A model generated the notes under the pieces. The model was not told the origin of the DNA. It was given only the letters and a program-made list of their open reading frames with translations, and searched no databases. Of a DNA stretch of 52,679 nt, positions 8,984 through 41,494 are shown piece after piece. Origin of the DNA: Candidatus Kaiserbacteria bacterium RIFCSPHIGHO2_02_FULL_55_25 (GTDB lineage Bacteria > Patescibacteriota > Minisyncoccia > Phycocordibacterales > UBA2100); the NCBI GenBank assembly GCA_001781335.1, contig MFLL01000010.1, forward strand, positions 1 through 52,679, written 5' to 3'. Position 1 is the first letter of the stretch. Each line of letters begins with the position of its first letter. A program made the position numbers and the translations under genes.

Positions 8984-8995
8984 TCGAGTTGCTCA

Positions 8996-9442
8996 GCTTC
9001 TAGGTTCTAGCGGCTAGGTTCTAGGTATGAATCCGGAAATCGAATCACACAAAGATCTGCTGGTTTGGCAAAAAGCAGTCACGCTCTCCATGGCAGTCTA
9101 TGCGATGACAGAAAAGTTTCCCGCGAGGGAAATGTACTCGCTTTCGTCGCAAATGCGTCGTGCGGTCGTATCCATACCTTCAAACATCGCGGAAGGGAAA
9201 GCGCGTCGCACGCGAGCCGACTATGTGCATTTTCTCCACATGGCATACGGTTCAGCATCCGAACTGGAAACCCAACTATTGATAGCGGCACGGCTCGGTT
9301 TCTGTTCCGAAAAAGTCTATGAAGAAACCAATTCACTGCTCGCAGAAGTGAGTAAGATGTTGCGTGCTATCATAAATAAACTAGCGACGGCTCGTTAGCT
9401 TGCTGTGTTCTGCCTAGAAGCTAGCCGCTAGTCCCTAGCACC
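8996..9442. repeat. pair of ~30-bp imperfect inverted repeats (8996-9025 and 9413-9442) bracketing the four-helix-bundle gene
   Basis: Left arm gcttctaggttctagcggctaggttctagg. Reverse complement of the right arm ggtgctagggactagcggctagcttctagg. I count 25/30 matching positions, including the core CTAGCGGCTAG. Confidence 0.75.
9027..9398 (+). CDS. four-helix-bundle protein (23S rRNA intervening-sequence protein family)
   Basis: LLVWQKA..., FPAREMYSLSSQMRRAVVSIPSNIAEG, GSASELETQLLIA: the signature motifs of this family, at ~123 aa. Confidence 0.85.
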   Translation: MNPEIESHKDLLVWQKAVTLSMAVYAMTEKFPAREMYSLSSQMRRAVVSIPSNIAEGKARRTRADYVHFLHMAYGSASELETQLLIAARLGFCSEKVYEETNSLLAEVSKMLRAIINKLATAR

Positions 9443-9448
9443 TATACT

Positions 9449-9955
9449 ATGCAATTCCAAGTTCCTCAATTCATAGAGGTGGAAGACAAAATTTTCGGGC
9501 CACTGACCTTCAGGCAATTCGTTTTTATCGCCGGAGGCTTCGGAATGGCCTATGTGCTATGGAGAATGTTGCCCATCTACCTCGCGGCGCCACTCATCCT
9601 CGGGGTAGGAGCACTTGCGGCGGCGCTTGCATTCTTCCAGTTCAACGGGCGACCGTTTATCCTCGCGCTCGAGAACGGCTTTTACTACATAATCCGGTCA
9701 AAACTGTACCTGTGGAACAACGCCAACAAGAAGCGGGCCGCGGTGAAGACAGCCGCGACGACCGCGCAGAATGACGTATACATCCCGAAAATTTCCGACA
9801 GTAAACTGCACGAACTCGCGTGGAGCCTCGACATCAAAGAGCGCATAGCCGCCGGCACGGCAGGGGACGACGAGCGGGGCGGCGCGCTCACCGGTGTGCG
9901 CACGCCAAAAGAAATCCTTTCGCACATGGGCGGGCGGGTAGCCAACAGCCAGTAG
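9449..9955 (+). CDS. PrgI-family (VirB3-like) T4SS membrane protein
   Basis: N-terminus MQFQVPQFIEVEDKIFGPLTFRQFVFIAGGFGMAYVLW followed by a second TM helix, the typical PrgI layout. Confidence 0.75.
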   Translation: MQFQVPQFIEVEDKIFGPLTFRQFVFIAGGFGMAYVLWRMLPIYLAAPLILGVGALAAALAFFQFNGRPFILALENGFYYIIRSKLYLWNNANKKRAAVKTAATTAQNDVYIPKISDSKLHELAWSLDIKERIAAGTAGDDERGGALTGVRTPKEILSHMGGRVANSQ

Positions 9956-9960
9956 TCTTT

Positions 9961-10053
9961 AGAACGTAGTGCGTAGAAAACACAATGCAAACACAAGATA
10001 CAATTCAAGGCATCCTCGCTACGTACTACGTACTAACTACTACGAACTAATGT
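9961..10053 (+). repeat. 93-nt intergenic element, copy A (degenerate hairpin), filling the gap between PrgI-like stop and next ATG
   Basis: Aligns without indels to 10725-10817; I count 10 substitutions in 93 nt. ACGTAG/CTACGT-rich arms flank a conserved AT-rich 45-nt centre. Confidence 0.85.
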
Positions 10054-10719
10054 ATGGCGGAAACACCAATCATGACGCCGCGCGCAAGCGCCAAGTCGAC
10101 ACAAGACTTCGTGCCGATTTCCCAAGTACGCGATGGTGTTGTGCTCCTCAAAGACGGCGGACTACGGGCGGTCCTGCTCGCATCAAGCATCAACTTCGCA
10201 CTCAAAAGCGAAGACGAGCAGACCGCGTTTATCGTGCAATTCCAGAACTTTCTCAACTCTCTCGATTTTTCGTTGCAGATATTCGTGCAGTCGCGCATGC
10301 TCGACATCCGTCCGTACGTTGCGACACTCGAGGCCGCGTACAAGGAGCAACTCGACGACCTCATGCGCATCCAAATCCGTGAATACATCGAGTTCATCAA
10401 AAGCTTCACCGAAGCCGCCAACATCATGACGAAAAACTTCTTCGTTGTTGTGCCGTATTCGCCCGCGGTCATCACGAAACGCGGCGGCGCGAGCGCGCTG
10501 AACCCGTTCGGCAAAAAACAGACGGCGAGCGAGGCCGACCACTCGTTCGAAGAACAAGTGAGCCAGCTGGAGCAGCGCATTTCTATCGTCCAGCAGGGCC
10601 TCGTGCGTACCGGTGTGCGCACCGTGCAGCTCGGCACCGAGGAGGCGATAGAGTTGCTCTACAAAATGTTCAACCCCGGCGAAGAGGGCAAGCCGATGCC
10701 CGTTCAGGGCAGTCAGTAG
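10054..10719 (+). CDS. hypothetical protein resembling the N-terminal ~200 aa of Gram-positive-type VirB4 (TrsE/Orf16-like) ATPases
   Basis: STQDFVPISQVRDGVVLLKDGGLRAVLLASSINFALKSEDEQTAFIVQFQNFLNSLDFSLQIFVQS matches my recollection of the N-terminus of long VirB4 homologues. No search was run. Confidence 0.5.
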   Translation: MAETPIMTPRASAKSTQDFVPISQVRDGVVLLKDGGLRAVLLASSINFALKSEDEQTAFIVQFQNFLNSLDFSLQIFVQSRMLDIRPYVATLEAAYKEQLDDLMRIQIREYIEFIKSFTEAANIMTKNFFVVVPYSPAVITKRGGASALNPFGKKQTASEADHSFEEQVSQLEQRISIVQQGLVRTGVRTVQLGTEEAIELLYKMFNPGEEGKPMPVQGSQ

Positions 10720-10724
10720 CTGAC

Positions 10725-10817
10725 AGAACGTAGTACGTAGAAAATACAATGCAAACACAAGATACAATTCAGGGCATCCTCACTACGTTCTACGTACTAC
10801 GTTCTACGTACTAATCT
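10725..10817 (+). repeat. 93-nt intergenic element, copy B, with a perfect 18-bp inverted repeat (10725-10742 / 10788-10805) and 45-nt loop
   Basis: agaacgtagtacgtagaa ... ttctacgtactacgttct are exact reverse complements. The loop carries two TACAAT boxes. The element ends at the ATG of the VirB4 gene. Confidence 0.9.
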
Positions 10818-12737
10818 ATGAACCTTACCGACCTTCTTCCGTTCAAGAAAAAAGCCGCCGCGGGGCCGGATATTTTGCCGGTACTACCCGAAGAAATCTA
10901 CCAGACGGGGGTACTCGACCTGCAGGACGTCATCGCACCGCATGCGCTCAAGGTAAATTCTCGCGAACTCGACTTGGGCGAGAAAATCGCGCGCACTTTC
11001 TTCGTCATTTCATACCCGCGCTTTCTCACCACGGGATGGTTCGCCCCCATCATCAACATGGACAAGGTCATCGACATTTCCATCTTCGTCCATCCGATGG
11101 ACACCAACGAAATGCTCCGTAAGTTCCAGAAAAAAGTCGCCGAGGTGCAGAGCCAAATCTCGACGCGCGAGCAGAAGGGGATGGTCCGTGACCCGATGCT
11201 CGATACCGCATACTCCGACCTCGAGCAGTTGCGCGACAGCCTCCAGCAGGCGCAGGAACGCATCTTCGACGTCGGACTCTACCTCACCATCTACGGCAAC
11301 ACGCGCGAAGAGATAGACAAGGTGGAGAGCGACGTGCGCTCCATTCTCGAATCGCGCCTCGTGTACATCCGCCCCGCACTCTTCCAGCAGGAACAGGGTT
11401 TCCGCTCCGTCCTCCCGCTGTGCACCGACGAGCTCGACGTGCACACAAAACTCAATTCCGCGCCGCTCTCATCCATCTTCCCGTTCATCTCGTTCGACCT
11501 CACCTCCGACCGCGGCATTCTCTACGGCATCAACCGTCACAATTCATCTCTTATTCTCTTCGACCGCTTCTCGCTCGAAAACTACAACTCCGTGACGTTT
11601 GCAAAATCCGGCGCCGGCAAAAGCTACACAACAAAACTTGAGATATTGCGCTCTCTCATGTTCGACACCGAGGTCATTGTCATCGACCCTGAGCGCGAAT
11701 ACGAATATCTCGCGGAGACCGTCGGCGGGCGCTACTTCAATATCTCCCTCTCCTCGGAGCACCACATTAATCCTTTTGACCTGCCCATCCCGCGCGAAGA
11801 TGAAAATCCGAGCGACGTGCTTCGCAACAACATCATCACGCTCGTCGGGCTCTTCCGCATCATGCTCGGCGGGCTCACGCCGGAGGAAGACGCCGTCATT
11901 GACAAGGCAATCACCGAAACCTACGCGCTCAAAGACATCACCTCGGATACGAATTTCGCACAGGTTGAGCCGCCGCTCCTCTCCGACTTCGAGCTCGTTC
12001 TATCCGGCATGGAGGGGAGCGAGTCGCTCGTGCAGCGTCTGTCCAAGTACACGAAGGGTACGTGGTCGGGATTCATGAACCGCCCGACGAACGTCGACAT
12101 GAATAAAAAGCTCGTCGTCTTCTCGGTGCGCGACATGGAAGACGACCTCAAACCGGTCGCGATGTACATAATCACGCACCACATCTGGAATCAGGTGCGC
12201 AAAGAGCTCCGCAAGCGCCTACTCGTCATCGACGAAGCCTGGTGGATGATGCGCTCCGAAGACACCGCGTCGTTCCTTTTCTCCATCGCAAAACGCGGCC
12301 GCAAATACTACCTTGGTATCTCGACCATCACACAGGACGTGTCCGACTTCCTGAACTCCCCGTACGGCATTCCTATGATAACCAACTCGTCCATTCAGCT
12401 CCTGCTACGCCAATCACCGACCTCCGTCGACCTCGTACAAAGCACGTTCAAGCTCTCCGACGAAGAGAAGTACCTTCTGCTCGAGAGCGACGTGGGGGAG
12501 GGTATCTTCTTTGCCGGTCTAAAACACGTTGCGCTCAAAGTCATCGCCTCATATACGGAAGATCAGATCATTACCTCGGACCCGTCGCAAATTCTCGCAA
12601 TCAAAAAGGCGAAACAGGAGCTCGACGCGTCGAATGACGCGCCCCGGCCCGTTGCCATGCCCGCCGCGCACGCACCGGGCACCGACACCGCACCAGCGCC
12701 GCAGGCTCCGTCCAGTAACGCCCTACGGGAGGTATGA
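10818..12737 (+). CDS. virB4: VirB4/TrsE-family T4SS ATPase
   Basis: Walker A FAKSGAGKSYT, Walker B RLLVIDEAWWMM, and ISTITQD... motifs. YPRFLTTGWFAPII...IDISIFVHP region typical of VirB4. Confidence 0.85.
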   Translation: MNLTDLLPFKKKAAAGPDILPVLPEEIYQTGVLDLQDVIAPHALKVNSRELDLGEKIARTFFVISYPRFLTTGWFAPIINMDKVIDISIFVHPMDTNEMLRKFQKKVAEVQSQISTREQKGMVRDPMLDTAYSDLEQLRDSLQQAQERIFDVGLYLTIYGNTREEIDKVESDVRSILESRLVYIRPALFQQEQGFRSVLPLCTDELDVHTKLNSAPLSSIFPFISFDLTSDRGILYGINRHNSSLILFDRFSLENYNSVTFAKSGAGKSYTTKLEILRSLMFDTEVIVIDPEREYEYLAETVGGRYFNISLSSEHHINPFDLPIPREDENPSDVLRNNIITLVGLFRIMLGGLTPEEDAVIDKAITETYALKDITSDTNFAQVEPPLLSDFELVLSGMEGSESLVQRLSKYTKGTWSGFMNRPTNVDMNKKLVVFSVRDMEDDLKPVAMYIITHHIWNQVRKELRKRLLVIDEAWWMMRSEDTASFLFSIAKRGRKYYLGISTITQDVSDFLNSPYGIPMITNSSIQLLLRQSPTSVDLVQSTFKLSDEEKYLLLESDVGEGIFFAGLKHVALKVIASYTEDQIITSDPSQILAIKKAKQELDASNDAPRPVAMPAAHAPGTDTAPAPQAPSSNALREV

Positions 12738-24843: not shown

Positions 24844-25010
24844 GCTCAAAGTATATCCCAAAGAAAAAGGCGGCGGATGTGTTACGGCCCGTCGGATACT
24901 CGGAGTCGGAACACCCCATCGGCTACAGCTCGAAGTCTTTCGGCACGTATAAGCCATGTTCCGTCGCCTATTGGTAACACTGCCTTCTTGCCCGCCAACC
25001 CAAAATCCCT

Positions 25011-25034
25011 ATACTTAGGTCTATGACTAAGTAT
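25011..25034. promoter_or_regulatory. operator-like palindrome ATACTTAGGTC-TAT-GACTAAGTAT overlapping the ArsR-family gene start codon
   Basis: Shares the half-site AATACTTAGGT with the perfect palindrome at 25425-25456. Confidence 0.5.
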
Positions 25035-25436
25035 TGGAACCCTCGTCGGATTAAACGCATCAAAGACCGGAAACTACGCGCGGCAAAACGCGCCTCAGAA
25101 AATGCCGCGATTCTTAGAGAACGTGCTCGTTCTTATACACCGGGTGATGCGCGGAAGAACGCCGGACTCATGCTAGACGCACTCGGTTTGCCGTTGAGAC
25201 GCCGGATGCTTGCACGACTAAGGCGAGAGGGCACCATGTCGGTTTCCAAGTTGGTCGAACCTTTCCGGATTACGCTTCCATCAGCACTCGAACATGTCCG
25301 CGTTCTCGAACGATCCGGTATCATTACGACGCATAAACACGGCCGTGTCAGGCTTTGCGTCTACCGGCCGGAAGCCCTAAAAGAACTCGCTCGCGAGCTC
25401 ACTTCTCGGGGATTAGAATATAATCCCAATACTTAG
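25023..25436 (+). CDS. ArsR/SmtB-family winged-helix transcriptional regulator
   Basis: LDALGLPLRRRMLARLRREGTMSVSKLVEPFRITLPSALEHVRVLERSGIITTHKHGRVRLC, an ArsR HTH pattern. Confidence 0.8.
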   Translation: MTKYWNPRRIKRIKDRKLRAAKRASENAAILRERARSYTPGDARKNAGLMLDALGLPLRRRMLARLRREGTMSVSKLVEPFRITLPSALEHVRVLERSGIITTHKHGRVRLCVYRPEALKELARELTSRGLEYNPNT

Positions 25437-25456
25437 GTTTGTACCTAAGTATTGGG
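25425..25456. promoter_or_regulatory. perfect 14+14 palindrome CCCAATACTTAGGT-TTGT-ACCTAAGTATTGGG (operator and/or terminator)
   Basis: Read directly from the sequence. Overlaps the ArsR stop codon, ~100 nt upstream of the VIT1-family gene. Followed by tandem TTTTAGGGAA x2 (25472-25492). Confidence 0.6.
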
Positions 25457-25553
25457 ATAGGAACAACTCGGTTTTAGGGAAATTTTAGGGAAGGGCGCGT
25501 CCCTCAAAAAAGGGCGCGCGTCGGGTACCATCGGGAGGTGGTACGATAGCGGT

Positions 25554-37087: not shown

Positions 37088-38101
37088 TTACAGCAGTTTC
37101 GATTGCGCGGTCGTGGTATCGGCACCAAGGTGCTCGTAGGCTTTCTTTGTCGCGGTTCGACCGCGAGGTGTTCTTTCCAAAAGTCCGTTTTGCATGAGGT
37201 ATGGTTCGTTCACTTCTTCAATCGTCGCTTCTTCCTCCGAGAGCGCGGCCGCAATAGTTTTCAATCCGACGGGGCCGCCGCCGAATTTTTCGATAATCAC
37301 AGTAAGAATGTCACGGTCGGTCTGATTGAGTCCGCCTTCGTCTATTTCGAGAAGCGCGAGTGCCTTTTTTACCGTTTTGATATCCAATTTTTCTTCATTC
37401 ACCGACGCGAAATCACGCGCACGTTTCAATAAATAATTCGCAGTACGCGGAGTCGAGCGCGAGCGGTGCGAAATTTCCATGAGCGAGTCTGCGTCAATGA
37501 TGATATTCAATATTTTTGCCGAGCGGCGGAGGATTTCGGCGATTTCTTGATCGGTGTAGTACTGCAAACGGAACGTACCGCCCGAAAAGCGCGAGCGCAG
37601 AGGTGCGCTAAGCATAGAAATGCGCGTCGTCGCGGCAATCAGCGTGAACGGTGGCAATTCCAATTGCACTGTGCGGGCCGCCGGACCCTTGCCGATGACG
37701 ATATCAAGCACGCCCGCTTCCATAGCAGGGTAGAGGACTTCTTCAATGGTGCGATTGAGGCGGTGGATTTCGTCTATAAAAAGGACGTCACCCGGCGAGA
37801 GGTTGGTGAGGATGGATGCAAGGTCGCCGACGCGCTCAATAGCGGGACCCGAAGTGCTCCGGAGATTTGCGCCGAGCTCTTTGGCGATGAGGTGCGCGAG
37901 CGTGGTCTTGCCCAAGCCGGGTGGACCGTAGAGGAGGACGTGCTCGGGCTGGTGATTGCGGCCTTTGGCGGCAGTGAGGAGGATGCGAAGGTTCTCCTTG
38001 ATTCCTTCTTGGCCCACATATTCGGCCCACGAAACAGGACGAAGCGCCTGATCGAGGGAGCGGGGGGACTTTTCTATTGAATTTTCGGCTGGCTTGGTCA
38101 T
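37088..38101 (-). CDS. ruvB: Holliday junction branch migration ATPase RuvB
   Basis: [14 protein letters not shown] Walker [11 protein letters not shown] Walker B, and TTR sensor. 337 aa. Confidence 0.96.
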
Positions 38102-38186
38102 AATTCGGCTCTTTTGCCAGCGCTAGCTGGGAAACGAGGCGGGGACTTGCCCCGTTAGAGGCGAGTTTACGAGCTCTCTAATGGGG

Positions 38187-38214
38187 TTGACAAATGGCTC
38201 TAATATGCTATACT
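38187..38214 (+). promoter_or_regulatory. near-consensus sigma70-type promoter TTGACA-16 nt (with TGc extended -10)-TATACT
   Basis: TTGACA 38187-38192, TGC 38206-38208, TATACT 38209-38214. No plus-strand protein gene follows. Confidence 0.6.
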
Positions 38215-38220
38215 GGACTT

Positions 38221-38448
38221 TAGAAGCGGATATTGTCCGCTTTTTCCATTTCTATGGAGACGCACAGCTTTGGGCAATGGTGACTTTACCGAGGACGCGA
38301 AGGTTTCGGCTCTCGTCATCCTTAGGTCCCGGTCGCAACATTCTCCCGAATGCATTGCCCAAACTTGTGCGTCTCTTTACCCCGAACATAGTCGAGGGGC
38401 AACTAATTTGAACCATAACACCCGATTGCCAGCGCGCAATCGGGTTTT
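38221..38448 (+). ncRNA. unclassified structured small-RNA candidate (~230 nt)
   Basis: Bounded by the promoter above and the terminator cccgattg-ccagcgcg-caatcggg-tttt (38421-38448). Contains a 23-bp helix pairing 38257-38279 with 38353-38375 (1 mismatch, 1 G-U). I could not match it to tmRNA, SRP, RNase P or 6S signatures by eye. Confidence 0.4.
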
Positions 38449-38481
38449 GTGGTCTAAAATTCTGCCTCAATAAAATGATTC

Positions 38482-38509
38482 GGACGTCGGCGTGTTACGG
38501 CCGACGTCC
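38482..38509. terminator. 10-bp stem-loop, probably a bidirectional terminator (sRNA candidate / MarR-like gene)
   Basis: ggacgtcggc-gtgttacg-gccgacgtcc, followed by tttgtcttt on the plus strand. Confidence 0.6.
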
Positions 38510-38516
38510 TTTGTCT

Positions 38517-38894
38517 TTAGGGGCGCGCGAGCTTCGGCATCTCGTCATCAATCATTCGTTCCAGTCGGGGCGTTGGGAATAGCAAGGTCACACGTTTGTC
38601 ATGCGGATGTATTTTCTCACGAATCAGTCCGGTTGAGATTGCCTGCTTGATGATTTTTTCGCTAGTCTTCATGTGCAGAATGTGCATGCGCCGCATCGCC
38701 CCAGACTTGTTAAGCGGCTTGCCGTCATTTGCTGACACATACACATTAAGCAGAAGCAGAACCATCCCGTGTTCCGCGATGAGCCCATGGCCACCGAATT
38801 CTCCGTCAAACCATGAATGGTTGAAGATGTTCAACAACGCCGCAGCTGCTTTCAGCGCCGATAACCGCTGTCCTTGTCTCGTGTTATGTAACAC
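38517..38894 (-). CDS. MarR-like winged-helix protein (weak assignment)
   Basis: GTG start preceded by GGGAGG. ...MHILHMKTSEKIIKQAISTGLIREKIHPHDKRVTLLFPT resembles a MarR recognition helix plus wing. Confidence 0.5.
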   Translation of the reverse strand: MLHNTRQGQRLSALKAAAALLNIFNHSWFDGEFGGHGLIAEHGMVLLLLNVYVSANDGKPLNKSGAMRRMHILHMKTSEKIIKQAISTGLIREKIHPHDKRVTLLFPTPRLERMIDDEMPKLARP

Positions 38895-38963
38895 GGGTAG
38901 CCTCCCAAGTGGCAGTTAAACCGTTACTGGAGGCAGTCTCCACTAGCAAGAAAACAAAGTCAA

Positions 38964-39080
38964 TCAAGCGATTGTTTCCAACATCACTTCATCGTTGAGG
39001 TCCACCACGCGGGAGAGTTCGTCGAATGATGTCACGCCCTGCAATATTTTCACCGCGCCGTCTTGCGCCATGCGGCGGAT
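38964..39080 (-). pseudogene. orphan copy of the last 38 codons plus stop of the GspE/PilB ATPase gene
   Basis: The minus-strand translation IRRMAQDGAVKILQGVTSFDELSRVVDLNDEVMLETIA* is identical to the C-terminus of 39803..41494. 12 third-position differences and a different stop codon (TGA vs TAG). No upstream reading-frame continuity. Confidence 0.85.
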
Positions 39081-39133
39081 TCTTGGGTTGCTGTATCTGA
39101 CGATAATTTTTCCAATTGGATTTCGTTTCAGCC

Positions 39134-39469
39134 TCAGGAAACATGCACTTTCGCGCCCACGGCAGCGAGAATGCGTGATGCGGTTTTAAGCGTGGGGCTT
39201 GATTCGCCAGTCTCAAACCGGGCAATGGCCGCCTGCTGCATGTTGGCGCGTTTGGCGATTTGCGCCTGCGTGAGCTTCTTTTCAATACGCTTGCGGATAA
39301 TGGCAAATCGCACCGCCCGCTCAAGGGCTCCCGCTTCGTAGAGCGTGCGGGTTTCTTTGTCTTTCAGGAGCTCGCGCCTCATGTGCTCAAACGGTACGTA
39401 TCCGAGTTTCTTCGCTCGGGCCAGAAACGTTTTTTGTTCCTTGGTCGATCTTTTTCCCATGCGTACCAT
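39134..39469 (-). CDS. XRE-family HTH antitoxin (HigA-like)
   Basis: IRKRIEKKLTQAQIAKRANMQQAAIARFETGESSPTLKTASRILAAVG HTH_3 pattern. ATG at 39469; the track start at 39496 is a TTG overlapping the toxin. Confidence 0.8.
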   Translation of the reverse strand: MVRMGKRSTKEQKTFLARAKKLGYVPFEHMRRELLKDKETRTLYEAGALERAVRFAIIRKRIEKKLTQAQIAKRANMQQAAIARFETGESSPTLKTASRILAAVGAKVHVS

Positions 39470-39488
39470 AATAACGAATACGTTATAA

Positions 39489-39797
39489 TTACGCAAGCTC
39501 CCCGAATCTTCTGTGCGCTGTTCGCAGTTCTCGCGGTGGTATTTTGTTCGATTTCTTTACAAAGCCGTTTACTATGTACACCGTGTCTCCCGAAAAGCCA
39601 TATAACAAGCGGACTTGGACAGAACCTTGAATGCGCAATTCAAACAGGTTAGCCGCAACTTTTTTACTGTCGGGCGGCGGGAGCAGTCGCCCAAACATTT
39701 CTAAGGCATCAAGTTGCTCCGTAGCTTTACTTTTCAGATCGGGCGGAAGTGTTTTTAGGAATTTTCTCACTGAATGATGGATACTCAGCGACGTCAT
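39489..39797 (-). CDS. RelE/HigB-superfamily toxin (phage Gp49-like)
   Basis: ...FELRIQGSVQVRLLYGFSGDTVYIVNGFVKKSNKIPPRELRTA, typical of the Gp49/HigB family. The toxin lies upstream of the HTH antitoxin. Confidence 0.75.
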   Translation of the reverse strand: MTSLSIHHSVRKFLKTLPPDLKSKATEQLDALEMFGRLLPPPDSKKVAANLFELRIQGSVQVRLLYGFSGDTVYIVNGFVKKSNKIPPRELRTAHRRFGELA

Positions 39798-39802
39798 AGT
39801 AG

Positions 39803-41494
39803 CTACGCAATCGTCTCCAACATCACTTCATCATTGAGGTCCACAACGCGCGAGAGTTCGTCGAATGATGTCACGCCCTGCAATATTTTCACCGCACCAT
39901 CCTGTGCCATACGGCGGATGTTCTGGTGTTTGGCGGCGTGCCAGATGTCGCGCTCGGACGAGGTGTGGCGCACGCACTCTTCGATTTCTCTGTCCATCAA
40001 AATCACTTCCACCACGGCGATACGGCCCTTGTAGCCGAGGCCGCCGCACTTTTCACAACCCTTCGGCACCCACATCTGCTCGCGATTCGCCGGCAGGTCT
40101 TCGGTGTGCGGGACGTTTTTGAGCAAGAAATTCATTTTCTCGAGCTCTTTGCCGGTAATCGGCGCGGCTTGCCGGCAATTGGTGCATAGTTTTCGCACAA
40201 GACGTTGTGCCATCGCGCATGTCACCGCCGCGCCGAGCACTTCGGCGGAGACACCCATGTCGATGAGGCGGGGGAACGTACCGCCGGCGTCGTTGGTGTG
40301 CAGTGTGGAGAAGACGAGGTGGCCCGTGAGCGAGGCGTGCACGGCGGTCGCCGCCACTTCTGCATCGCGGATTTCGCCGACCATTATCACGTCGGGGTCT
40401 TGGCGCAAGGTAGAGCGCAATCCTTGCGCGAATGTGTAGTCTTTTGAAACTTGGGTCTGCACGATACCGGGGAGGTGATACTCGACAGGGTCTTCGATGG
40501 TGACGATTTTAATTTCCGGTTTGTGCACTTTGCGCAAGAACGCATAGAGCGTCGTCGTCTTACCGCTCCCCGTGGGCCCCGTGTTCAAAATCATGCCGTT
40601 GGGCTTCGCGATTTCGCGGTCGAAAATATCCATCAGGTACTTGTCGAAGCCGAGCGCTTCCATCGGGAGTGCGATGGTGGTCGGGTCCAAGAGACGCATG
40701 ACGATGGTTTCCGCATACGAGCCGGGAAGGACCGAGGTGCGTATTTCGACTTCCTTGCCGCCGACGACGATGGAGAAGCGGCCGTCCTGTGCCGCGTTTT
40801 TTATGTTGAGCTTGAGACCCGACAAGAGTTTGAGACGCGAGGATATGAGCGCATAGGTCGGTGTGTCGAAGACAAGAACCTCGACAAGCACGCCGTCGAG
40901 ACGGTAGCGCATGCGCACGCCTGCCTCTTCGGGCTCGAGGTGCACGTCGGAGGCGCCGAGGCTAAGCGCTCCGGCCATAATGATTTCCAAGACGCGCGAA
41001 ATGCGATGCGTATCTTTGCTCTTGGTGTGTGAATTGATTTCCACGCGCACGTCGTCGAGGGTTTTGAGCTTTTGCAACATCTGCTGAATGGTGTCGTTGG
41101 AGAGCGTGAGAATACCGGCTTCCGTCTCGGTCGCGTATGAAATATCGTGGAAGCGGTCCCACGCATGTTCGAGTGAGGCCTGCGAGACGATAAACCGCCG
41201 CGGTTCGTAGCCGAGGTGCTCGAGGTCTTTGAGTATCTCCAGTGCGTCGGCCCGCTCGGGTGCGCGCATTCCCACGAAGAGCAGTTTGTTCACTTTGTGG
41301 AACGGTGCCACCTCGGCCGCGCGCGCCTGTGCTTCGGGCACAAGGCGAAGCGCGTCGGTGTCAATGGACTTGTTGGTGAGGTCGACGTACTCGACGCCGT
41401 ACTTACCGGCAAGCATCGCCGCGAGCTGCTCCTCCTCTTTGGCACGAAGCTCACGCAGACGCTCCTCCTGTTTTTTCTCGTTGAACTGCGTCAT
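39803..41494 (-). CDS. GspE/PilB-family type II secretion / type IV pilus assembly ATPase
   Basis: Starts MTQFNEKKQEERLREL at 41494. Walker A GPTGSGKTTT, Asp box, Walker B VIMVGEIRD, His box. Tetracysteine CTNC...CEKC. The track ORF to 41935 is a spurious extension. Confidence 0.92.
   Translation of the reverse strand: MTQFNEKKQEERLRELRAKEEEQLAAMLAGKYGVEYVDLTNKSIDTDALRLVPEAQARAAEVAPFHKVNKLLFVGMRAPERADALEILKDLEHLGYEPRRFIVSQASLEHAWDRFHDISYATETEAGILTLSNDTIQQMLQKLKTLDDVRVEINSHTKSKDTHRISRVLEIIMAGALSLGASDVHLEPEEAGVRMRYRLDGVLVEVLVFDTPTYALISSRLKLLSGLKLNIKNAAQDGRFSIVVGGKEVEIRTSVLPGSYAETIVMRLLDPTTIALPMEALGFDKYLMDIFDREIAKPNGMILNTGPTGSGKTTTLYAFLRKVHKPEIKIVTIEDPVEYHLPGIVQTQVSKDYTFAQGLRSTLRQDPDVIMVGEIRDAEVAATAVHASLTGHLVFSTLHTNDAGGTFPRLIDMGVSAEVLGAAVTCAMAQRLVRKLCTNCRQAAPITGKELEKMNFLLKNVPHTEDLPANREQMWVPKGCEKCGGLGYKGRIAVVEVILMDREIEECVRHTSSERDIWHAAKHQNIRRMAQDGAVKILQGVTSFDELSRVVDLNDEVMLETIA

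Follow-up and report, generated by a model that had tools for sequence, protein, structure and literature searches.

Two copies of the pilB 3′ end flank a HigBA-like toxin-antitoxin cassette in a Kaiserbacteria genome: probable entry by recombination within a conserved gene

Why should a toxin-antitoxin (TA) gene pair lie between two copies of the same gene end? We have studied this question in Candidatus Kaiserbacteria bacterium RIFCSPHIGHO2_02_FULL_55_25, in a contig of 52,679 nucleotides (MFLL01000010.1, assembly GCA_001781335.1) that was analyzed over its whole length and is called the window here. A pilB/gspE-family gene, hereafter pilB, is followed in the window by a HigBA-like TA pair and then by a second, isolated copy of the pilB 3′ end. 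Patescibacteria have tiny genomes and few classical mobile elements; we know of no cultured Kaiserbacteria, and little of the routes by which they gain genes. A first-pass annotation, made from the sequence alone, had proposed that the cassette was imported together with a pilB end from a diverged relative. The reading that we favor, with a probability of about 0.68, is that an 839-bp unit comprising the functional pilB 3′ end (copy F), higB, higA and a 53-nt spacer is a passenger cassette, which entered the pilB 3′ end by recombination with DNA of a diverged relative. The second copy of the end is called copy S. The features of the window, and the comparable copies in related loci, are collected in Table 1.

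Copies F and S were re-aligned and translated. The alignment comprises 117 columns without a gap, of which 103 are identical (88%). The coding differences number 12 and all fall at third codon positions (columns 9, 15, 18, 21, 24, 69, 75, 87, 105, 108, 111 and 114); each is synonymous, so that both copies encode the peptide IRRMAQDGAVKILQGVTSFDELSRVVDLNDEVMLETIA, and the stop codons are TAG in F and TGA in S. Between columns 25 and 68 lies an identical core of 44 nt. The homology breaks sharply at both ends, the 30 nt upstream and the 13 nt downstream being unrelated. The extent of the repeat, its abrupt ends, the exclusively synonymous divergence and the short junction TAG CTACT ATG between the pilB stop and the toxin start are all as the first-pass annotation had described them. 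With the same mix of transitions and transversions, the probability that 12 of 12 substitutions would be synonymous is ~2.5e-7. Because the differences are synonymous only, both copies appear to have evolved as working pilB ends in separate lineages, and on this pattern one of them must derive from a different, functional pilB allele, i.e., it is of foreign origin. The pair is the second-longest direct repeat of the 52.7-kb window (D2 in our repeat search); the two copies lie 839 nt apart and enclose the insert.

Copy S has an in-frame ATG (column 10) and a stop, and some gene callers list the stretch 38964-39071 of the reverse strand (10727-10834 in locus L002, for example) as a 35-aa open reading frame (ORF) whose product is identical to the PilB C-terminus. 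This is probably a pseudo-ORF.

Which of the two ends is the resident one? We compared ~100 related Kaiserbacteria and Paceibacterota loci, designated here by L numbers. The gene order PolA, TsaE, pilB, a variable interval, ruvB is conserved. In the 71 species-representative loci with pilB-to-ruvB synteny, which were used for the gap statistics, the distance from the pilB stop to the ruvB start ranges from 160 to 3836 nt, being 500 nt or less in 34 and more than 1 kb in 22. The interval may contain TA pairs, an oxidase, an ABC transporter, ORFs without an assigned family, or nothing; it is a gene-insertion hotspot. Both structures that the first-pass annotation had pointed to as informative, the empty site and the same type of TA pair behind pilB elsewhere, are present in this set. 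Empty sites, in which pilB is followed by a small ORF and ruvB, occur in the close relatives L011, L013, L016, L017 and L018 (their absence from the window's own lineage is taken up below), the small ORF in L011, L013 and L016 being one of 134 aa. Homologous HigBA pairs lie behind pilB in other lineages, in L012, L058, L064, L118 and L121, with toxin identities of 47-81%. A single PilB protein (P0003, 97% identical to that of the window) is found both at the empty sites L011, L013 and L016 and at the HigBA-occupied sites L012, L014 and L015. In L019 and L020 an FAD-binding oxidase takes the place of the TA pair.

These loci indicate the polarity of the exchange. Copy S of the window and the 12 nt that follow it (TGATTGACTTTG...) can be aligned with the pilB end and downstream sequence of the empty-site locus L017 and resemble the S copy of L019, and the string TGATTGAC(T/A)TT is common to the S side of the window, the empty allele of L017 and the S copy of L019. 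Downstream of F there is cassette sequence only. The S copy of L012 ends in 27 nt identical to the empty allele L011 (…GTGATGCTCGAGACGATTGCATAG), and the functional end of L012 differs. The pilB genes of L011 and L012 are near-identical over most of their length, where isolated differences are few and one small group of them lies close to the 5′ end; in the final ~62 nt the two genes differ at seven synonymous positions and in the stop. The clustering of differences in this tail points to a recombination breakpoint inside the pilB 3′ end.

Two other ideas were rejected in the course of this comparison. The empty allele of L011 did not arise by simple deletion from an L012-like structure, as the differences reach upstream of the 38-nt repeat of L012. 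Nor is copy F closer to other cassette-linked pilB ends, since it differs at 16 sites from the functional end of L012 and at 12 from that of the empty L011; such a linkage signal is missing because recombination shuffles pilB ends.

Each locus was searched for a second copy of its own pilB tail or that of any relative. A further partial pilB end, of 24-106 nt, lies behind the cargo in at least eight other occupied loci, and the cargo varies (Table 1). All S copies reach the pilB stop and that genome's own downstream sequence, whereas on the 5′ side they begin at different points, 24 to 117 nt before the stop (tail positions 34, 45, 48, 76, 113, 115, 121 and 127 of 150). Because they always run into resident-type sequence, S is most likely a displaced resident end. 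Two species, L028 and L062, share one mini-insert of ~65 nt just past the pilB stop (L028:6692-6755 and L062:5414-5493), which consists of a replacement pilB end (GAAGTAATGCTTGA…TAG) and a hairpin with GCCTGCCCCGTNGGAAGCG, and is followed by the species' own pilB end. On these alignments the F-side end demonstrably travels with the insert. The motif GCCTGCCCCGTAG is also found after the pilB stop in L058. Taking L017 and L019, L012, and L028 and L062 together, the functional end most likely moves with the insert and the downstream copy is the end that was displaced. In the window, copy F is probably the end that travels with the cassette, and copy S is probably the resident pilB end. Of the two polarities that the first-pass annotation had allowed, displacement of the resident end is thus favored by the continuity of S with resident-type sequence, although the window's lineage offers no empty site of its own.

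Table 1. Features of the window, and displaced pilB ends (S copies) in related loci
Feature or locus	Position in window	Strand	S copy	Content or cargo	Remarks
Copy F	39803-39919	−		last 38 codons + TAG of pilB, functional	toxin ATG 5 nt later
Copy S	38964-39080	−	117 nt	38 codons + TGA, non-functional pilB 3′ end	
Spacer	39081..39133	−		53 nt	antitoxin stop to copy S
HigB-like toxin	39489..39797	−		102 aa, Gp49/RelE superfamily	PF05973 Gp49, E = 4.4e-18
HigA-like antitoxin	39134..39469	−		111 aa, Xre-type helix-turn-helix (HTH)	PF01381 HTH_3, E = 5e-11
pilB/gspE-family gene	39803..41494	−		type IV pilus or type II secretion ATPase, 563 aa	Pfam T2SSE 1e-113, MshEN
125-aa ORF	38517..38894	−		lineage-specific	downstream of copy S, in hypervariable pilB-ruvB interval
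Structured non-coding block	38170..38450	+		candidate non-coding RNA (ncRNA) gene	own promoter and terminator; right-hand conserved flank of variable interval
ruvB	37088..38101	−		Pfam RuvB_N, AAA_lid_4, RuvB_C	conserved core gene, far side of hotspot
L012/L014/L015			37-40 nt	HigBA	S abuts antitoxin stop
L019/L020			26-41 nt	FAD oxidase	functional pilB end in AT-rich, foreign-looking codons
L025			38 nt	127-aa ORF	
L056			103 nt, 96% identical	NTP_transf_2 + NTase_sub_bind (MNT/HEPN) pair	4 differences, all synonymous
L064			~106 nt	distant Gp49 + HTH pair	indel present
L077			73 nt	ABC transporter operon + TrmB regulator	
L071			26-48 nt	1049-aa PG-binding protein	cargo on opposite strand
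L028, L062			24 and 32 nt	~65-nt non-coding hairpin insert	

Is this restricted to pilB? In L030 an ORF of 306 aa begins 9 nt past the ruvB stop, and a diverged second copy of the ruvB tail comes behind it (L030:8963-9037 and L030:10012-10085). The copied segment is the C-terminal coding sequence of ruvB (…GRIVTKK.YEHIG…KLL*) and is unrelated in sequence to the pilB end, indicating that the mechanism is not specific to pilB. Across 805 kb of flanking sequence there are no more than 10 short dispersed direct repeats; three lie at the pilB end, and the pair at ruvB in L030 is one of the others. No Pfam match to an integrase or transposase was found among the cargo ORFs scanned in L056, L064, L025, L077 and L071; precomputed Pfam listings gave none in the pilB-ruvB intervals of the other loci or of the window, and viral searches with the 44-nt core and the toxin gave no phage match. 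The first-pass annotation had called the route free of a recombinase. The missing integrase and transposase genes and the variable repeat boundaries suggest as much; the description stands as a reading of these sequences, and a recombinase acting in trans is weighed against it below.

The linkage of pilB with higBA is, to judge from its distribution, old and widespread. In the more distant Paceibacterota L118 and L121-L125, toxin homologues of 55-62% identity lie behind pilB, the higB start overlaps the pilB stop (ATGA; L118:940-950 and L121:3498-3508, and likewise in L122-L125), and an S copy is missing. These loci encode a PilB that is 3-6 residues shorter and diverges just after …VVDL, which places the cassette junction inside the pilB reading frame. 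In L058 the TA pair lies 113 nt past pilB without an S copy, and in L120 the homologue is elsewhere in the genome. In L064, with a toxin only 47% identical, the S copy follows the antitoxin stop directly and begins at the same point of the pilB end as S in the window, to within 0-2 nt; the L064 copy has decayed by a 2-nt indel. By a rough estimate, the chance that two independent illegitimate joints would coincide in this way within the last 150 nt is a few percent. The shared boundary suggests that the F-HigBA-S architecture was inherited with the cassette, with S probably renewed by recombination with each new resident pilB end. Thus the origin of one copy from another functional allele is upheld, but the import was not a one-off event.

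How might such a structure form? A plain double crossover leaves no duplication, so that at its origin the structure would require either that a circle entered by one crossover or that one joint was illegitimate. We propose that a founding illegitimate event (circle closure or a one-sided joint) would have created a module with a pilB end, which would later have spread by host homologous recombination and, once formed, would require no recombinase of its own. The cassette would bring its own last 38 pilB codons, leaving PilB intact, and the resident last 38 codons would be pushed downstream to become copy S. One junction would be homologous, inside pilB. The other, from the spacer to column 1 of S, would have been made once, either as an illegitimate joint or in circularized donor DNA. 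The spacer would then be cassette-derived, its right end being the novel joint (illegitimate, or the point of circle closure); significant matches to it are confined to the lineage of the window, and the TA loci L058, L118 and L121 gave none. In subsequent transfers the pilB body with F would act as the left homology arm and S, a conserved coding copy, as a right arm portable into any relative, an important property given the hypervariable DNA past pilB. Alternatively, the repeats could loop the unit out as a circle, which would re-enter by a single (Campbell-type) crossover. Entry would most likely depend on host RecA following DNA uptake, and we infer natural transformation as the route. Natural competence with comEC-dependent homologous insertion has been proven in Saccharibacteria, another class of Patescibacteria (PMC10633639). 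A circular molecule that inserts by a single crossover leaves the homologous segment duplicated (109-950 bp), and it is by such duplications that the event is recognized; homology-facilitated illegitimate recombination (HFIR), by contrast, usually removes recipient DNA (PMC3240628).

Do the two repeats recombine with each other? The contig L010 (651 nt, Rifle sample SAMN03842436) contains the last 35 nt of the spacer, a hybrid repeat, the toxin and the antitoxin. The hybrid repeat is S-type in columns 9-24 and F-type in columns 69-117, placing the crossover in or next to the 44-nt core. The contig L007, from another sample, begins at column 15 and has the same hybrid repeat. On this slender evidence the two contigs appear to carry the junction of an excised 839-bp circle or of a tandem duplication, i.e., the repeats appear to recombine. 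There was no further junction contig among the 10 antitoxin contigs listed of 24, and a precisely excised reciprocal site was not found among the available contigs. Metagenome contigs scanned with the 117-nt repeat and with its 44-nt core gave neither empty-site nor circle hybrids, in a collection that evidently does not contain the contigs of this lineage, as JGI samples known to hold the sequence gave no match either.

A number of observations weigh against cassette entry as we have set it out. The junction evidence consists of one 651-nt contig and one that starts inside the repeat, and a tandem duplication, or an error-correction artefact at the repeat, would look the same in L010. A monomeric circle is a poor substrate for transformation, in which linear single strands are imported, so that the circle route needs another path of entry. 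The competence of Kaiserbacteria is assumed by analogy with Saccharibacteria. The window's own lineage has provided neither an empty site nor a donor, the cassette being present in 14 of 14 contigs with its PilB and 22 of 22 with the 125-aa ORF, and which block moved there is deduced by analogy with the relatives. Past S, the DNA of L011 and L012 cannot be aligned until the conserved block before ruvB, suggesting that a whole block was swapped by flanking homology with S already present in the donor. Finally, the L012 cassette is ~84% homologous at the nucleotide level, yet its S copy is 38 nt long and there is no spacer, so that one must suppose either that a deletion followed or that the event was a separate one.

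Could the movement have been the reverse? The HigBA pair would then be resident, and a block consisting of S and the 125-aa ORF would have come from a cassette-less relative through an illegitimate joint at the spacer end and a homologous one in the flank formed by the ncRNA and ruvB. The widespread adjacency of pilB and higBA, with the toxin ATG overlapping the pilB stop in L118 and L121-L125, would be in keeping with this. So would the exchange of whole blocks between L011 and L012, which includes the downstream ORF and ends where homology resumes in the ncRNA region, and the lack of any relative of the 125-aa ORF in other lineages. However, the matching 5′ boundary of S in L064 ties S to the cassette architecture, and in L028 and L062 it is the F-side end that moves with the insert. 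We consider the reverse polarity unlikely, and as the final structure is the same either way, it would be a variant of cassette entry by recombination and not a contradiction of it.

Site-specific integration by a recombinase supplied in trans is improbable. The unit would in this case be a non-autonomous element (cis-mobilizable, or an integron-type cassette) with an attachment (att) site in the pilB 3′ end, F and S being attL and attR. Integrase islands classically leave imperfect direct repeats by which the target gene regains its 3′ end, and this is the footprint seen here. The 44-nt identical core, with the L010 crossover in or beside it, would suit an att core, and the insertion site has been reused repeatedly. 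Against such integration, no occupied interval contains an integrase or transposase, the 5′ boundaries of the repeats differ (24 to 117 nt) with no motif beyond the pilB coding sequence, and the cargo is unrelated from case to case and often begins 2-18 nt past the stop. The unrelated sequence involved at ruvB in L030 argues for a sequence-independent, homology-driven process.

A local duplication of the pilB end, with S maintained under purifying selection as a translated 35-aa peptide, would also yield synonymous-only divergence, and S does have the ATG, the stop and the called ORF described above. We find this explanation very hard to sustain: the S ATG is not preceded by a Shine-Dalgarno-like sequence, other S copies lack an ATG (the 38-nt copies, and L056, which starts at column 15), non-synonymous changes occur elsewhere (L012 N>H, L025 D>N and L077 I>V) along with a frameshift in L064, and S is continuous with the resident-type downstream sequence of empty-site relatives.

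Exact matches to the toxin, the antitoxin, PilB and the 125-aa protein were found in public contigs of ~20 different sample assemblies, from the Rifle aquifer and other sources. Three assembly pipelines gave the order F-cassette-S, including assemblies with k = 141, in contigs of 5 to 132 kb, many of which span both copies. A 1.1-kb interval was base-for-base identical in 10 of the 10 contigs checked directly, and in the fetched loci a pure F lies next to pilB in 32 copies and a pure S next to the downstream ORF in 36. Thus, although several short contigs break within the repeat (L006-L009), so that it does perturb assembly graphs, a merging of two strains at a shared k-mer, against which the first-pass annotation had warned, is excluded by the zero differences across ~20 independent samples and three pipelines and by a k of 141 that exceeds the 44-nt identical core.

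What does the cassette encode, and how might it be expressed? The assignments of the first-pass annotation to a GspE/PilB gene and a HigBA-like pair are borne out by the Pfam matches in Table 1. The NCBIfam PilB/GspE matches of the window's PilB lie under the equivalog cut-offs; the protein (P0001, 563 aa) is present on 14 public contigs. The toxin scores 65.6 bits against PF05973, for which the cut-off is 23.9, and a public homologue, P0127, carries the name RelE/ParE family toxin. The exact toxin protein is on 12 public contigs and the exact antitoxin protein on at least 24, in the same arrangement in all. Pseudogenization of the toxin, which is missing from several gene tables, was rejected: the DNA is identical and the ORF intact, and the omission is a quirk of listing. 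The two small genes lie 19 nt apart on the same strand, with the toxin upstream of the antitoxin (the reversed order), and by family and gene order they are a putative toxin and antitoxin of the HigBA type of type II systems. A crude consensus scan found no sigma-70-like promoter in 38300-40300, where Patescibacteria promoters may differ from that consensus, and in several independent events the cargo starts 2-18 nt past the pilB stop. The closeness of cargo to the stop and the lack of a detected promoter suggest read-through expression from pilB, with higBA as an extension of the pilB operon.

The gene downstream of copy S had been called MarR-like by the first-pass annotation. This was not confirmed; the 125-aa ORF has no Pfam or NCBIfam match, and no tblastn match in the loci of other lineages. 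Relatives hold unrelated small ORFs at this position. Even among strains with near-identical pilB bodies the small ORF before the RNA block is swapped for unrelated sequence, giving ORFs of 134, 101 and 125 aa (L011:6763-7418, L012:7021-7581 and window 38517-38894); by eye, a motif LVMADP..C is common to the small ORFs of L012 and L025.

Between this ORF and ruvB lies a conserved structured block, a candidate for a new small RNA gene. Its promoter is of the extended −10 type and close to consensus (TTGACA-N-TGCTATACT, at 38187-38214), and is conserved in 58 Kaiserbacteria loci; an intrinsic terminator lies at 38420-38445 on the forward strand. The consensus fold has 46 pairs, 27 with compensatory changes, and forms a three-way junction closed by a ~24-bp helix. 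The block is antisense to ruvB and to the variable region. No Rfam family matches it, either at the gathering score or at E <= 1. The block fills the minimal pilB-ruvB gap of ~320-380 nt, and it is here that L011 and L012 become homologous again.

None of the other repeat pairs in the window duplicates a gene end; D3 lies between genes, and in I4 two inverted repeats enclose a small ORF. Two intergenic repeats of 111 nt with 86% identity (9946-10056 and 10710-10820) each follow the stop of one of two consecutive genes. Both contain internal inverted repeats (tagaacgtagt…actacgttcta), resemble gene-flanking intergenic repeats in L023 and L027, and may be structured intergenic elements. Downstream of them is a 639-aa ORF (10818-12737), which by eye only we take to be a candidate VirB4-like gene. 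Inverted repeats of 31 nt (8995-9025 and 9413-9443; rich in ctagg, 84% complementary) enclose a 123-aa ORF (9027-9398) between two genes, and the whole looks like a small self-contained insertion. Palindromic elements of ~34 nt (25004-25037 and 25422-25458; AATCCCTATACTTAGG…CCTAAGTATTGG) lie 418 nt apart and form both a direct and an inverted repeat.

The scar described here is a record of homologous recombination in an uncultivated group. A displaced but codon-perfect gene end would mark a recent recombination between lineages, and shows the position of the crossover and often the resident side; scars of this kind accompany at least six types of cargo at two genes, and whole genomes can be screened for them to detect gene gain driven by homology. 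The locus suggests that TA pairs with no evident mobile element can spread and be maintained by attachment to the conserved end of an essential-type gene, and in this instance the pilus ATPase itself belongs to the presumed machinery of DNA uptake. The pilB-ruvB interval may further offer a natural neutral site for engineering these organisms. A broader idea, doubtful but worth stating, is that Kaiserbacteria, and perhaps Patescibacteria generally, possess a recombinase-free platform for gene capture, somewhat like an integron, in which promoterless cassettes dock just past the stops of conserved genes. If this were true, TA pairs, enzymes, transporters and a 65-nt hairpin would dock at pilB, and at least once at ruvB, each with a replacement gene end. 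The displaced end would act as a universal right arm, and cassettes could hop between species by transformation and RecA alone, or loop out as circles. The boundary common to HigBA cassettes of 47% identity would then mean that modules persist and propagate as units over long evolutionary times.

How does the locus compare with known systems? The pair itself resembles other HigBA type II systems in having the toxin first (Gp49/RelE, 102 aa) and then an Xre-HTH antitoxin (111 aa). It differs in lacking a detected promoter and in the position of the toxin ATG, 5 nt past the pilB stop and overlapping it in L118 and L121.

As to the mode of insertion, the closest concept in our reading is the minimal mobile element (MME) of Neisseria. 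By the definition quoted in PMC3082526 (Saunders & Snyder 2002; Snyder et al. 2007), MMEs are cassettes that lie between conserved genes and are moved by homologous recombination. Insertion by homologous recombination anchored in pilB could be seen as a variant of the MME or as a single-crossover insertion. As with MMEs, the site is bounded by conserved sequence, pilB at the left and the ncRNA and ruvB at the right, and holds different whole-gene cassettes in different strains. These lack mobility genes and would be exchanged through flanking homologous recombination, in a lineage that probably takes up DNA. Unlike them, the left crossover lies inside the coding 3′ end, and the cassette carries a replacement end and leaves a displaced copy of 24-117 nt that can act as a right arm. 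MMEs as so defined are without such duplications, and the host here is an uncultivated Patescibacterium.

In Campbell-type insertion, exemplified by lacZ-end duplications of 109-950 bp (PMC3240628), direct repeats likewise flank the insert, their length is that of the homologous fragment carried, and the event would be reversible through the repeats; the circular-permutation junction in L010 would correspond to this, although a tandem duplication fits equally. The pilB case is by contrast natural and at the population level, and its repeats have diverged (88%). The carried fragment includes the stop, so that the target gene remains intact, and a circle is the candidate vehicle, with no replicon or conjugative vehicle known. 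HFIR captures foreign DNA beside an anchor in a conserved gene, one of its junctions being homologous and the other not, and such an anchor in pilB is plausible. However, it usually deletes recipient DNA of similar size and uses microhomology of 3-10 bp (PMC3240628), whereas recipient DNA is duplicated at pilB.

Integrase islands and prophages in gene 3′ ends are alike in that an end borne by the element keeps the target intact, the direct repeats are imperfect and the displaced end lies downstream. The pilB case differs in lacking an integrase and a fixed att core, in repeats of varying extent and inserts from 65 nt to 3.3 kb, and in the matching footprint at a second gene, ruvB in L030. What is new is the combination of these properties: a coding gene end carried by the cassette as its docking site, recurrent scars, reuse across different cargo and two genes, and the setting in the Patescibacteria.

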